Assembly: GCA_963693365.1 (NCBI GenBank)
Contig: CAVNZM010000003.1
Location: 1,432,920-1,452,267 of the forward strand
Source of the DNA: Amoebidium appalachense
Taxonomy: Eukaryota > Protista > Ichthyosporea
Length of the DNA: 19,348 bases
Reading direction: 5' to 3'
Part shown: positions 1,784 to 10,382 of the stretch, piece by piece
Layout of the letters: each line of letters starts with the position of its first letter
Position numbering within the stretch: the first letter of the stretch is position 1
Made by a program: the position numbers and the translations under genes
Notes under the pieces: model-generated
What the model saw: only the letters and a program-made list of their open reading frames with translations
What the model was told of the DNA's origin: nothing
Database searches by the model: none

Positions 1784-2920
1784 ATGGAGCTGTTACGAGT
1801 GGCCACTTGGTTTGTAGTTGCGGGCGTTTTCTATATCAGTTTCTGCCTAATCCGTTTTTTGGAACCTACACTTGGACCAGCCGTATGGTTTTGGTCAGCA
1901 TGGCACGGGCTACCCATAGCCTTACAGGCACTACGTGCCCTGCTCTGGGTGGCCATTTATTTTGTTCCACTAATGTTGCAGATGACAAAATCAAACCCAA
2001 CTCTTTTTCTTGCTCTTATCTATTATGGCTACAGTTACGGGCGTGCCATTGTGTTGTTTTTTCGTAGCTCATTTTTTTCGCTCCTGTACTTGTGTGGCCC
2101 ATTCTCACATGTGGTGTGCCTTGGGATATATACACTGTGGCCTTTGCCCACGCTTTTCTACCTAATTTCAAGCATACACCCTTATTTCGTGTTGATCACA
2201 TACATTTTACGCAAATTCGGACTTATGGCAAGTCACAGGAAAGGTCATTTCGCACGCATTCGCGTAGCTCGTCGAAAGTTCGCTCTTCGGCAAATAATGA
2301 TACGTCGCCATCGCAATGGGCAACACATTTCTTCATTTTCCCCCCTCCTCACTGACAAAACACCAGATCAGTCAAAAACAGCTGGGAAAGTCAACTCTTT
2401 CTATTCTGTTATCATTCCTACCCTTTTCCTTCTCCTTTGCTACATGCCCGGAGCCTGTGCATTCGGCAACCAATCATATACGGTAGATAATTTTAGTACA
2501 ACATCCCACCCGCTTGCTCCAACCCCTGCTGTCAGTATCTTCGTGGCAACTCTCATTGTATTTCTCGTTTTCCTCCAAGTTCGTAGTGGCGCTGGTAAGC
2601 GCCAAGCGAAAAGGAAACCACGTGACCCAGAATGGGGGGATTTTGAGCTCGAGACAAACCACAACGACCAATCAAACTCAGTTGACAACACACAACCAGG
2701 CATTTCTGATCATGTGGCCATACCAATACCGCAACCCAAACGCCCGCGAGTAGAAAAACCCCTTCTTCCCTTTCCTTACACAAGAGTGGAGGGGGGGTTA
2801 CGAAATTTTATTGTTCCCTTTGTGAATATACCACCAGCAGGATCGAATATTTCAAGTCACACAAACGCGAATTTTTCGATGAAGAGAAACAAGAATGGGC
2901 TCGAACAAATCTCCATATAA
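1784..2920 (+). CDS. Multi-pass membrane protein ORF (378 aa), probably the N-terminal part of the transposase gene
   Basis: Long ORF free of microsatellites, with ATG in ACCATGG context at 1784. It has several long hydrophobic segments, a signal-peptide-like VIIPTLFLLLCYMPGACA, NQS/NFS sequons, a TM segment VSIFVATLIVFLVFLQV followed by basic RSGAGKRQAKRKPR, and PKRPR (NLS-like). Confidence 0.65.
   Translation: MELLRVATWFVVAGVFYISFCLIRFLEPTLGPAVWFWSAWHGLPIALQALRALLWVAIYFVPLMLQMTKSNPTLFLALIYYGYSYGRAIVLFFRSSFFSLLYLCGPFSHVVCLGIYTLWPLPTLFYLISSIHPYFVLITYILRKFGLMASHRKGHFARIRVARRKFALRQIMIRRHRNGQHISSFSPLLTDKTPDQSKTAGKVNSFYSVIIPTLFLLLCYMPGACAFGNQSYTVDNFSTTSHPLAPTPAVSIFVATLIVFLVFLQVRSGAGKRQAKRKPRDPEWGDFELETNHNDQSNSVDNTQPGISDHVAIPIPQPKRPRVEKPLLPFPYTRVEGGLRNFIVPFVNIPPAGSNISSHTNANFSMKRNKNGLEQISI
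2803..2868 (+). other. C2H2-like zinc-finger motif (KFYCSLCEYTTSRIEYFKSHKR) in the transposase frame, upstream of ATG 2920
   Basis: Manual translation shows the frame of ORF 2920 is open from 2710 (TGA at 2707-2709) and reads ...[48 protein letters not shown]. This fits F-x-C-x2-C-x12-H. The fourth ligand is not at canonical spacing. Confidence 0.6.
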
Positions 2921-3317
2921 TGCAGGGTGTACAAAGCACATACAAGCGAAATGACACAGAACCTGGCAGATTAACACGTCAAATCGCACAACTTAATTCA
3001 AACAACCAGAACCAACCCACAAATAACCCCCCACAACAATCCACCAATCAAAGCCGAGCGCAACAAAATGCGAGAACTGCGTTGGTACCCCCCAGCGAAT
3101 ATCAATACCACGAGCAACGGAGCGAAATCGCACCCGAGCAAGCATTCCCAAACACTACTGGTGCCCCAGACCTTTCTGTGCGGGGTATTCAATCAAGGGC
3201 TGGGGGTTTTGCACAAGCATTCCGTGCAAATTTTGAGGATAACATGGCTTTGCGCTTTTTCACTAATAGTAACGAGGACTCACAAGATGACGATGATTTG
3301 CCGGATATATCGGACTG
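2920..3317 (+). CDS. Transposase gene exon 1 (Q/N-rich, low complexity; extends upstream in frame to the zinc finger)
   Basis: Coding part of ORF 2920..3681 ends at ...PDISD, followed by TG|GTACGT (donor 3318) and then poly-C and (GT)n. Confidence 0.7.
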
Positions 3318-3608
3318 GTACGTATACTACTACCCCCCCCCCCCCCCCCTCCGGTCCCACCCCATCCTGTCCACCCACGTGCTTTACATACACATTGTAC
3401 TGCCCGCAACCACTAAGAACATGCAAGCCAGAACCAGAGCCAGCTGCGTGATTGTGAAGTTTATGTGTTTGTGTGAGCTTGTGTGTGTGTGTGTGTGTGA
3501 GTGTGTGTGTGTGTATGTGTGTGTGTGTGCGCGCACGCGCATTGTGCTGCTTACAAACACGAAACAAGCAAGCCGGAGCCTGAGCCTTTTTTGTGTGTGT
3601 AGGTGTAT

Positions 3609-3639
<31 letters not shown>

Positions 3640-3999
3640 GTGACGTGTGTGTGCTTGTCTGCTTGTGTGTGTGTGTGTTAATGTGTATGTATGTGTGTGT
3701 GTGTGTGCGCGCGCGTGCGTGTGCGGTGGCACCTGTGTACACGGTGACCGTGTGTGCAGGTGTTTTGATGTGCACGTAATTGTATTGGGTTTTGTATCCC
3801 GTAACAGTATGCACGTGTGCGTTTGTGTCTTTATATTTTCAGGATGAGGTGTTTGTGTGTTGGCAGTGGCCGGCACTGCTATCGGTAATGTTATTGTCTG
3901 GTACAGACCCTGTCTTGTTCACTGACACTATTTTTTTTGGTAACATGCTCTACACACAGCTTTCAGGAATGTATGGATTACATTGCGCTGTAGTTTTAG

Positions 4000-4045
<46 letters not shown>

Positions 4046-8657: not shown

Positions 8658-8692
<35 letters not shown>

Positions 8693-8819
8693 GAGAGGGG
8701 GAGAAGCGAGGGAGAGAGACAGAGAGAGGTGTGTGTGTGTGGGGGGGGGGGGGGGGGGGGGGGAGATCGAGACGAGAAAGGAGAAGAGAGAGGAGAGAGA
8801 GAGGGAGAGAAAGAGAGAG

Positions 8820-8875
<56 letters not shown>

Positions 8876-9156
8876 TGTGTGTGTGAGTGAGAGAGAGAGA
8901 GAGAGAGAGATAAGAAAGGTAGATAGGGCGTGTGTATGTGTATGTGTGTGGGTGTGTGTGTGTGGGGGGGGGGTTGTTTTATCTGGTCGGACACCACCGG
9001 GGGGGGGGGGGGGGGGGAGAAGGTGAAAGGGCAAGAATGAGAGAAGAAGAAAGGGAAGCAGGAAGAGAAGGAGGAAAAGGTTAGAGGAAGAAGGGGCCTG
9101 GATCGAGAAGGGGATGTAGGAAACATGCAGACGGGGGCACAACGGATGGATGGATG

Positions 9157-9232
<76 letters not shown>

Positions 9233-10382
9233 GTGCGTGTTTATATGTGACTGTGTGTCATATGAACGTCTACAAACATGTGCATACGTGTACGGACAAA
9301 CACCTACATCTTCTTCTACCAAAATAAACAAACACACACAAAAAGATACTGCAAACACATATATGCTACAAGAACGAAGCAAACCTAACCTTTAAGCACC
9401 CCCCCCCCCCCCCCCCCCCCCCCCCCCGCCCGCCCCCACTTGCACCAGTACCAACCCCCCTCCCTTCCCCCCCCCCCCCTCCCCACCTCTTCCCGTCCGT
9501 CCCTTTCCCTCTCATCCCCTACTAACACAACACACACGGGCACACACCATTCTCTACCGCCCGGCTACCAAGCTGCCCTTCAACTTTAAAGCATCACAGC
9601 CACCCACTGACACAGGCACGGTGCACACAGGTGTAGAGTGGCAGATGATAATGTGCGCCCTGTGTCAAGGGTTCTACCGTGCGCCAGAGCTACGTGCCCT
9701 TCTTCCTCCCGCGCTGTTGGAACTACTACCCGACCACGAAATCAGTGCTGAGGGCATTGAACGCCGGCAAACAGTCACGGGCACTTACGGGCCAGCTCAG
9801 GCAGCACCGGAGCAGACTAAACGGCGTGGTAAGCAGATCAGCGTGGATGGCAGCCCATTTGCAGACCTGCGACAACAAATCGTTCATTACATTCGTGCTG
9901 CCTACTTCAGCGACAAACAGTTTAACGTTGGGCTTCAGCTTGCAAAAAAGGCATGCCCCCAAAACATCACAACCTACACAACCGGAATAGTCCGGCACAC
10001 CCGGATAACATGCAACTCCAACGCAACCAGCAACAAGCGCAGGTACGTCTCGGCAAGCTTGCCAAGAGATAGCGCTCACCTTGATAACTGTGGTGAGTAC
10101 TTTGGGGAGATCATGTTTTTTTTTGAGTGTGATATTAAGGTCGAGGAGGGTAGGGTGGAGAGGGTTGAGCTAACATACTGCCAGTGGCGGTACAACCCCA
10201 AAGAGATAGTTACGAATGGGATGTACATAGTGACCGATGCAATTTACCAGGCTGAGAAGTGGGCCCAAAAGGTCGTGAACCCCCAGGCTTTCGAAAGATT
10301 GTGTATGATTCTCTCGTGGAAAGACCCAGACCCCCAGAACAACAATGAGTATGCAGTTCTCCCACTAAGGCCCGGGCTTTAA
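2920..10382 (+). CDS. Spliced CACTA/EnSpm (CMC) Tnp2-family DDE transposase; join(2920-3317,4109-4609,5071-5574,6146-6871,7253-7503,8110-8589,9631-10382), 3612 nt / 1203 aa from ATG 2920; true start probably upstream
   Basis: Tnp2-type motifs recognised by eye: CPxxxC...CG zinc-binding region, [83 protein letters not shown]...FG...W.F.YE..NG.L. All six introns have GT donors (GTACGT, GTGTGC, GTGAGT, GTAAGT, GTATGT, GTATGT) and CAG acceptors with matching phases (2,2,2,2,1,1). There are no internal stops. Confidence 0.88.
4109..4609 (+). CDS. Transposase gene exon 2 (Pro-rich/acidic, probably disordered)
   Basis: CTGAC branch point, then CAG acceptor at 4106-4108. The frame is open ([10 protein letters not shown]...[10 protein letters not shown]...QNLFR) and ends at AG|GTGTGC. 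Confidence 0.75.
5071..5574 (+). CDS. Transposase gene exon 3 (helical region plus first half of the Cys-rich zinc-binding motif)
   Basis: GCTAAC branch at 5040-5045, CAG at 5068-5070, ORF 5072..5578 with [13 protein letters not shown], donor GTGAGT at 5575. Confidence 0.85.
6146..6871 (+). CDS. Transposase gene exon 4 (Tnp2 catalytic core, first two Asp motifs)
   Basis: CAG at 6143-6145; NFDFF and CDSPG motifs; donor GTAAGT at 6872. Confidence 0.92.
7253..7503 (+). CDS. Transposase gene exon 5 (DPMH motif)
   Basis: CAG at 7250-7252; [10 protein letters not shown]...[10 protein letters not shown]; donor GTATGT at 7504. Confidence 0.9.
8110..8589 (+). CDS. Transposase gene exon 6 (DUF4218-like region with the catalytic Glu motif)
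   Basis: CAG at 8107-8109; open frame QLRRIDRRL...[10 protein letters not shown]...KPNYHYASH...[12 protein letters not shown]; donor GTATGT at 8590. Confidence 0.9.
9631..10382 (+). CDS. Transposase gene exon 7 (C-terminal domain), stop TAA 10380-10382
   Basis: CAG at 9628-9630, with an in-frame alternative CAG at 9613-9615. The splice joins [19 protein letters not shown] resembles CMC transposase C-termini. Confidence 0.85.

Follow-up and report, generated by a model that had tools for sequence, protein, structure and literature searches.

Can a transposase be held in a membrane? To our knowledge, eukaryotic DDE transposases are regarded as soluble nuclear enzymes. Our literature search (open full texts, with most subscription papers and the Repbase reports lying outside it) brought up no paper in which an intact eukaryotic DDE transposase carries a multi-pass membrane domain as a fusion. 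The question is nevertheless raised by a locus within 19,348 nt of Amoebidium appalachense DNA (GCA_963693365.1, contig CAVNZM010000003.1, positions 1,432,920-1,452,267 of the forward strand), a stretch referred to here as the window. In it, a sequence-only reading had found a hydrophobic ORF which a frameshift would join to a CACTA/CMC transposase.

A continuous frame from the hydrophobic region to the transposase

As read from the window, the ORF at 1784-2920 does encode 378 aa, and the transposase frame does open at 2710 with its first ATG at 2920, both as previously described. To link the two, a single -1 shift had been placed at 2791-2809. It is not needed: all three DNA runs with contigs over the locus (X2, X7, and the base-converted library X9) carry an extra base in the G-run, positioned as a G behind 2790 in X2 and X7 and as an A behind 2787 in X9, and the frame is continuous. 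These contigs cover positions 1640-3310, an interval spanned by a single contig in X2 and in X7, while for exons 2 to 7 and the left end the window is the sole source of sequence. A fourth run, X12, presumed to be RNA, contributed no contig here, a result that speaks neither for expression nor against it. Since the extra base recurs in all three runs, the G-run shortfall in the window is a homopolymer assembly error, and both the 378-aa ORF and the ORF overlap are artefacts. One uninterrupted frame thus leads from the ATG at 1784 into the zinc finger, and the fusion is real at the DNA level.

What then of a programmed -1 ribosomal frameshift, or a stop-restart at TAATG (2918-2922), as the link between two overlapping ORFs? 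Such a link has the window's own letters in its favour but is contradicted by the base that restores the frame in 3/3 runs; it was rejected, and we give it almost no credence. The locus is instead an example of a homopolymer error mimicking a programmed frameshift. From 1784 to 2593 (810 nt), neither stops nor indels occur in the unconverted samples X2 and X7, and the frame stays open across this stretch in 2 of 20,000 block dinucleotide shuffles. Since three independent contig sets all keep it in frame, the fused architecture has more support than the sequence-only reading supposed: the order of predicted membrane segments, zinc finger, linker and Tnp2 domain stands, with a charge pattern that fits a cytosolic transposase (see below), and the frameshift has been dropped.

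In the gene model, seven exons joined by six GT-AG introns yield a stop-free product of 1582 aa ending at 10382 (Table 1), in good agreement with the single protein of ~1580 aa that had been proposed. The introns are 381-1041 nt long, the modelled acceptors are CAG in all six cases, and simple repeats take up 91-308 nt of each intron, against 0 nt in the hydrophobic N-terminal region. The product matches Tnp2 (Transposase_21, PF02992) with 60.9 bits for a cut-off of 28.6 (E 1.3e-16), which upholds the CACTA/CMC identity; Plavaka (PF18759) matches no window exon at E <= 1. Alignment with the homologue P0001 shows that the residues of the CACTA/EnSpm signature (PMC12730594) are all present, namely D952, D1043, C1062/C1065, H1294/H1298 and E1318, the last being followed by L here and by R in P0001. 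As modelled from its sequence, the locus is an intact, seven-exon CMC/EnSpm-type (Tnp2) transposase gene. Upstream of the core, the zinc-finger-like motif said to lie in the overlap is there as CxxC...H with a single His, and its zf-met and zf-C2H2 matches (E 0.01-0.05) fall under the curated Pfam cut-offs.

Table 1. Positions of the features in the window
Feature	Position	Strand	Evidence
Putative left terminus (begins with CCC; motif-dense block)	3..290		inferred
Exon 1 (long form), aa 1-511, with the hydrophobic stretch, the basic and zinc-finger-like motifs and the beginning of the low-complexity linker	1784..3317	+	
Predicted membrane segments 1-4: aa 8-26, 43-61, 97-115, 124-142	1805..2209	+	Kyte-Doolittle 19-mer means 1.68-1.9
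Basic loop, aa 143-208, 16 K/R and 2 D/E, predicted cytosolic	2210..2407	+	
Predicted segment 5 (aa 209-227), 20-aa loop, segment 6 (aa 248-266)	2408..2581	+	
Possible alternative acceptor, with a pyrimidine tract and TAG at 2586	2564..2586	+	predicted
Basic cluster directly after segment 6, with 7 K/R among 24 aa, either positive-inside or resembling an NLS	2582..2623	+	
G-run, window one base shorter than contigs of three DNA runs	2791..2797	+	contig comparison
Zinc-finger-like motif CxxC...H: C344, C347, H360, no second His	2806..2865	+	weak Pfam matches
Exon 2, aa 512-678, low-complexity acidic linker	4109..4609	+	
Exon 3, aa 679-846; likeness to other Tnp2 transposases from ~aa 722	5071..5574	+	
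Exon 4, Tnp2 core: D952 (6459), D1043 (6732), CxxC 1062-1065	6146..6871	+	PF02992 match, alignment
Exon 5, DPMH motif aa 1136-1139	7253..7503	+	
Exon 6, H-x3-H (1294/1298), catalytic-position E1318 (8544)	8110..8589	+	alignment
Exon 7, C-terminal region and stop	9631..10382	+	

The predicted membrane region

The N-terminal region comprises 267 aa with six hydrophobic segments on the Kyte-Doolittle scale, and AlphaFold, run on the single sequence, models the first four as helices (mean pLDDT 57.5). The fifth is signal-like and ends in A-C-A, and by the -3/-1 rule this end may be read as a signal-peptidase site. Between segments 5 and 6 lies a loop of 20 aa, predicted to be luminal, which contains no K/R and carries sequons at N229 and N236; the NQS and NFS sequons noted from the sequence are thereby confirmed, as are the basic NLS-like motifs, found as basic clusters downstream of the last hydrophobic segment.

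Could T-rich DNA alone account for the hydrophobicity? For the number of segments the shuffles reject this, as at least six peaks occurred in 2, 1 and 2 of 5,000 shuffles (three block sizes; null mean 1.4-1.8), and each of the remaining five frames shows 0-1 peaks; mean hydropathy alone was equalled in 55-77 of 5,000. The charges follow the predicted topology, with K/R making up 27 of 132 “inside” and 0 of 44 “outside” loop residues (Fisher p 0.0002, topology and limits having been set from hydropathy by the analyst). Counted by loop, K/R occur in 4/4 inside regions and 0/3 outside loops, a 1 in 35 chance, with sides again assigned from hydropathy. The hydrophobic and charge pattern is non-random and is the signature of a membrane protein, and its charge distribution places the transposase, in the predicted topology, on the cytosolic side. 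The region also holds three copies of PTLF and four of PTL, which vary at their third codon positions (some 4-mer reached three copies in 82 of 20,000 shuffles), and its codon-position bias is borderline (p 0.051). Ahead of the zinc finger, the frame has ATGs only at aa 1, 64, 67, 148, 172 and 221, each of which precedes segment 6.

No relatives of this region came to light. A search of 1.84 billion representatives, whose query included a 40-aa out-of-frame tail, gave no homologue; neither did a word search of 207-662-aa proteins, viral and metagenome contigs, or the ESM Atlas (best score 0.77), and the region has no Pfam family. Aligned with 12 database homologues, the transposase shows 25-35% identity over 130-650 aligned columns. 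A profile search confined to 1512-4315-aa proteins gave two fungal matches; no close relatives with flanking DNA were found. These 12 proteins have 0-2 hydrophobic peaks each, compared with six here, and none has a comparable block; the two that reach as far upstream of the core (P0011 and P0012) show no peaks in the equivalent region.

The element and its variation

The possible left end begins with CCC after two flanking bases, followed by a block dense in CAATA/TATTG in both orientations, which resembles subterminal repeats (17 copies, against a maximum of 9 in 5,000 shuffles). Animal CACTA-like elements have CCC termini and 2-bp direct repeats according to the available part of PMC1636069; the putative CCC start of this locus would resemble theirs. 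Positions 3-16 have no inverted partner within the window, and the partner end would therefore lie outside it. A TnpA-like gene was not identified, the remaining ORFs of the window have no Pfam family above cut-off, and Rfam gave 0 matches. An OTU-like ORF is present on the minus strand (its structure model, at pLDDT 36, is unusable), and tandem repeats of 0.5 kb occur in the surroundings.

The X7 allele differs over 1784-2593 by 2 synonymous and 8 non-synonymous changes, the neutral expectation being 24% synonymous (dN/dS ~1.35). These 10 changes in 810 nt compare with 2 in the 715 nt behind (p 0.03). The frame and the six peaks survive 10 random changes 42% of the time in simulation, and their intactness in X7 is for this reason uninformative. 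A lack of purifying selection, which the sequence-only reading had counted against the fusion, is weakly indicated, the region looking neutral on ten substitutions in this second sample. The CpGs over the ATG at 1784 are unconverted in X9 (one run), i.e., methylated, which suggests silencing.

Tether, release and competing explanations

How might such a protein work? We propose a membrane-tethered long form from which the free enzyme would arise by splicing or cleavage, a proposal made for one locus and predicted from its sequence, which we regard as evenly poised between right and wrong. Transcription would begin upstream of 1784 and translation at the ATG 1784; the long product would insert into the membrane of the ER or nuclear envelope with both termini inside (N-in/C-in), so that the zinc finger and DDE core would face the cytosol. 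The anchor would serve as a holding device, and free enzyme would arise when the hydrophobic stretch is spliced out or the chain is cut at the last segment. Of these routes we favour alternative splicing, from 1810 or 1727 to 2586, given the candidate sites in the sequence and the alternative splicing of En/Spm-type elements, as described for CACTA elements in the available parts of PMC1636069 and PMC13547354. Acceptor 2586 would let a short upstream exon bypass all six segments; with donors 1810 and 1727 the candidate introns measure 777-860 nt, and in-frame candidate introns removing every segment number 30 out of 144. Splicing past the segments, also counted against the fusion beforehand, is thus possible from the sequence, in the form of candidate sites.

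The other route is proteolytic. Single-pass stubs with a short luminal part are the kind cut by intramembrane proteases. Cleavage after A226 might, speculatively, leave such a stub with a luminal part of ~20 residues, and cutting it could release a fragment led by the basic cluster. We consider it rather unlikely that the whole chain operates, namely a polytopic ER or envelope transposase, internal signal cleavage to a single-pass stub whose tiny luminal part is glycosylated, host intramembrane proteolysis freeing an NLS-led enzyme, and a membrane signal that would switch on transposition in the manner of a membrane-bound transcription factor.

The same splice sites serve a different explanation, in which the hydrophobic stretch is a relic of some membrane-protein gene, whether captured or ancestral, now a first intron or leader that is accidentally in frame and drifting, and the soluble transposase made via 2586 is the sole working product. 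The candidate introns fall within the size range of the gene's own, acceptor 2586 has a pyrimidine share of 0.75 (0.4-0.75 at the six modelled acceptors), and the first six bases of donor 1727 are identical to those of the intron 2 donor; neutral-looking variation, faster than in the DNA behind, and the want of homologues also agree with a relic. Against it, the 810 nt keep exactly the transposase frame without stop or indel in both unconverted samples, they are free of simple repeats, with which each of the six introns is filled, and 2586 is a TAG where the modelled acceptors are all CAG. With evidence on both sides, we find a relic somewhat unlikely. Improbable, in our view, is a domesticated host-transposase fusion, that is, an immobile, single-copy membrane-bound DNA-binding or chromatin protein that serves the host much as a membrane-bound transcription factor does. 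Three samples contain the locus, X2 and X7 each have one contig over the stretch and show no diverged copy at 80% likeness, and the available part of PMC11351766 reports domesticated hAT transposases that have predicted helices or localise to membranes; however, identical young copies would merge into one contig, the catalytic-position residues are intact, CpGs over the start are methylated, and the surroundings are transposon-like (CCC motif-rich end, OTU-like ORF, 0.5-kb tandem repeats). That the anchor puts the transposase, alone or together with excised element DNA, on secretory vesicles for cell-to-cell transfer would suit the predicted topology, and the available part of PMC11351766 calls DAYSLEEPER nuclear and vesicular. 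But the predicted outward loops, of 8-20 aa, are too small to accommodate a domain for receptor binding or fusion, and viral likeness was absent from viral contigs and from a structure search among viral proteins with the low-confidence model (pLDDT 57.5; no match at E <= 0.001), which makes such transfer very improbable.

The proposed tethered long form has partial parallels elsewhere. With the CACTA/EnSpm elements (maize Spm TnpD, Schistosoma SmTRC1, Cryptococcus CNIRT6) it shares PF02992 and an intron-bearing gene, but ~340 additional residues precede the zinc finger here, with six predicted membrane segments. Membrane-bound transcription factors, of which SREBP and MYRF are examples (PMC13294678, available part), are released by cleavage or splicing (PMC9237531, available part). 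As is predicted for the long form, they couple a DNA-acting domain with a membrane segment and may be freed in either of two ways, whereas the payload of this locus is the DDE recombinase of a selfish element and there is no homology. SLEEPER/DAYSLEEPER hAT proteins are also transposase-derived, 21 of 162 rapeseed members having predicted helices and some being found at membranes or vesicles; they belong to another superfamily, however, are domesticated, and have no multi-pass N-terminal domain described in the available part of PMC11351766. Bdelloid rotifer Terminons, also large eukaryotic mobile elements, encode transmembrane and coiled-coil ORFs but are retroelements, their TM proteins being separate ORFs unfused to a DDE transposase (PMC6431247, available part). 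Should the long form be produced, it would add a layer of transposon control, through membrane sequestration and splice- or protease-gated release, and could couple jumping to the state of the ER or envelope or favour insertion at the nuclear periphery.

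The transposase gene and its reading frame

The window is eukaryotic DNA in which GT, GA and G runs abound within introns. On its plus strand, seven exons and six GT-AG introns (381-1041 nt each) give a stop-free product that ends at 10382 and measures 1582 aa from ATG 1784 in the corrected frame. Exon 4 matches PF02992 (Transposase_21; E 1.3e-16), and D952, D1043, CxxC 1062-1065, H1294/H1298 and E1318 align in position with database homologues. By this sequence signature the enzyme is a member of a known family, EnSpm/CMC, for which PMC12730594 gives the residue set seen in the gene model; one departure is the position after E1318, L here vs. 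R in the homologue P0001.

The sequence-only reading had proposed that a multi-pass membrane domain was joined to the zinc-finger-like motif (2806-2865) and transposase core across a -1 frameshift. Four of the 24 runs listed were compared with the window over 1640-3310. The DNA run X2 crosses this interval in a single contig with no substitutions and an extra G in the G-run 2791-2797, and possibly stems from the very source of this DNA; X7, a DNA run from a different sample, does so with 12 substitutions and the same extra G. In a third DNA run, X9, the contig covers 1953-3177 and has an extra A after 2787, read as a converted G of the run, its differences being C>T and G>A only, as expected of a base-converted library. 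X12, an RNA run by guess, has no contig over 1640-3310. Since all three DNA runs carry the extra base, the frame that starts at ATG 1784 continues unbroken across the zinc finger: the fused architecture is upheld, and the frameshift is an assembly error that dropped one base.

A predicted multi-pass N-terminal region

The 5′ part of exon 1 (1784-2593) makes a statistically convincing membrane-protein coding sequence, at this one locus. Only 2 of 20,000 block-wise dinucleotide shuffles leave it without stops (10 of 20,000 counting any of three frames), and the other two plus frames across 1748-2800 hold 13 and 10 stops. Six non-overlapping 19-residue windows have a mean hydropathy of at least 1.6, against a null mean of 1.4-1.8 windows; this was equalled in 2, 1 and 2 of 5,000 shuffles, and the remaining five frames have 0-1 each. 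With an alternating topology and a cytosolic ("inside") N-terminus assumed, the better of two orientations being picked, K/R account for 27 of the 132 loop residues inside vs. 0 of 44 outside (Fisher p 0.0002); since charges tend to come in clusters, the odds counted by whole loops, 1 in 35, are the safer measure. This predicted topology puts both sequons in one outside loop and the transposase inside. PTLF occurs three times with differing third codon positions (some 4-mer occurred three times in 82 of 20,000 shuffles), and simple repeats amount to 0 nt vs. 91-308 nt in each of the six introns. All in-frame ATGs that precede the zinc finger are found ahead of the last segment. A single-sequence AlphaFold model, of low confidence (mean pLDDT 57.5, pTM 0.28), is entirely helical over aa 1-276. 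On the opposing side, the bias in codon positions is no more than borderline (p 0.051).

Membrane tethering and competing explanations

Whether a membrane-tethered long form of the transposase is made seems to us evenly balanced. Upon translation from 1784, the six segments would enter the ER or nuclear envelope, leaving the zinc finger, the ~320-aa acidic linker and the DDE core all on the cytosol side; the anchor would keep the enzyme off chromatin or cap its free amount, and free enzyme would come from a TM-skipping splice or from cleavage. En/Spm-type elements make several products through alternative splicing (PMC1636069, PMC13547354), and membrane-bound transcription factors are freed by splicing or by cleavage (PMC9237531). 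Segment 5 (aa 209-227) ends in A-C-A and tolerates C225R and F227S in X7. By the -3/-1 rule, and in this one allele, that would fit a cleavable signal-like segment better than a buried helix. Candidate in-frame introns preceded by an ATG number 144, of which 30 would remove all six segments; the most plausible of these pair a donor at 1810 or 1727 with TAG 2586 (777 or 860 nt), an acceptor with a pyrimidine share of 0.75.

Such splicing is also what the main rival invokes, namely that the stretch is what is left of a gene for a membrane protein and that its removal by splicing now yields an ordinary soluble transposase, an account we hold rather unlikely yet serious. In X7, 1784-2593 carries eight non-synonymous and two synonymous changes where neutrality expects 24% synonymous, and so matches the neutral prediction in a tiny, allele-level sample; it has 10 substitutions vs. 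2 in the following 715 nt (p 0.03). That the X7 frame and six peaks are intact carries no weight, since 10 random changes leave both intact in 42% of simulations. No homologue of the region was found in proteins of 207-662 aa, 1.84 billion representatives, the ESM Atlas or viral/metagenome contigs. Each of the 12 homologous transposases compared has 0-2 hydropathy peaks; P0011 and P0012 alone have a stretch of comparable length ahead of the first D, with no peak in it, and the N-termini of the other ten may have been shortened by gene calling.

A predicted multi-pass N-terminal domain in frame with a known-family transposase, as seen at this one locus, is apparently undescribed. A literature search linking transposases with transmembrane domains, in a library that leaves out Repbase-type reports, yielded no such fusion, and "transmembrane" is absent from the main text of PMC12139950 and PMC12730594. 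The nearest cases are Terminons (PMC6431247), which encode TM ORFs, and SLEEPER proteins (PMC11351766), which are domesticated and have predicted helices. Domestication of the present transposase is a weaker, improbable reading, and vesicle transfer a highly improbable one.

Gene start and surrounding element

In X9, 1749-1899 holds 36 cytosines: the 28 non-CpG ones are all converted, and the eight not listed as converted are exactly the CpGs, as counted among the differences listed, with loose contig ends likewise retaining CG. This points to dense CpG methylation over the gene start in that sample, where the gene may therefore be silent. CpG depletion across the window is slight (observed/expected 0.73-1.09 in ten segments). 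A 20-codon upstream ORF (ATG 1685, stop 1745-1747) shares the main frame, and 1687-1747 also resembles a short GT-AG intron; an upstream ORF or short intron near 1685-1781 could tune translation from ATG 1784.

Two bases and then CCC open the window, and in the 290-nt block there CAATA/TATTG motifs number 17, vs. a maximum of nine in 5,000 shuffles. According to PMC1636069, the CACTA-like elements of animals start in CCC and show direct repeats of 2 bp. The CCC-started end has no partner within the window; the X2 contig, if colinear, would end at ~275, the edge of the motif-rich block, by arithmetic estimate.

Further features of the window
Feature	Positions	Strand	Remarks
OTU-like ORF	15618-16509	minus, convergent to transposase	protease-like Cys/His pattern: DG-x-C, later W and H-Y-W
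OTU-like ORF, possible further exons	15064-15132, 14590-14653, 13936-14302	minus	
Two adjoining ORFs	13353-13886, 13936-14313	minus	mutual paralogues: 33% over 94 aa, E 3e-13
~97-aa ORF	331-621	minus, divergent from transposase gene	coiled-coil-like appearance
Tandem repeat	16711-18685		~4 copies, unit ~510 nt, 94-96% identity; each with GT and G microsatellites
CCCCAC array	15201-15412		35 copies; G-rich hexamer on minus strand, inside presumed intron

Pfam gave no family above cut-off for the two adjoining ORFs and weak matches only (E 0.02-0.03) for the ~97-aa ORF. Among PDB sequences the OTU-like ORF comes closest to OTU domains of viruses, with E values of 0.15-0.51 only; its Atlas score is 0.93 to a cluster where 19% carry PF02338, and several alternative exon chains stay open (410-464 aa). 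OTU is named as an accessory domain of DNA transposons in PMC5751038 and PMC6431247, and this ORF possibly belongs to the same element as the transposase.
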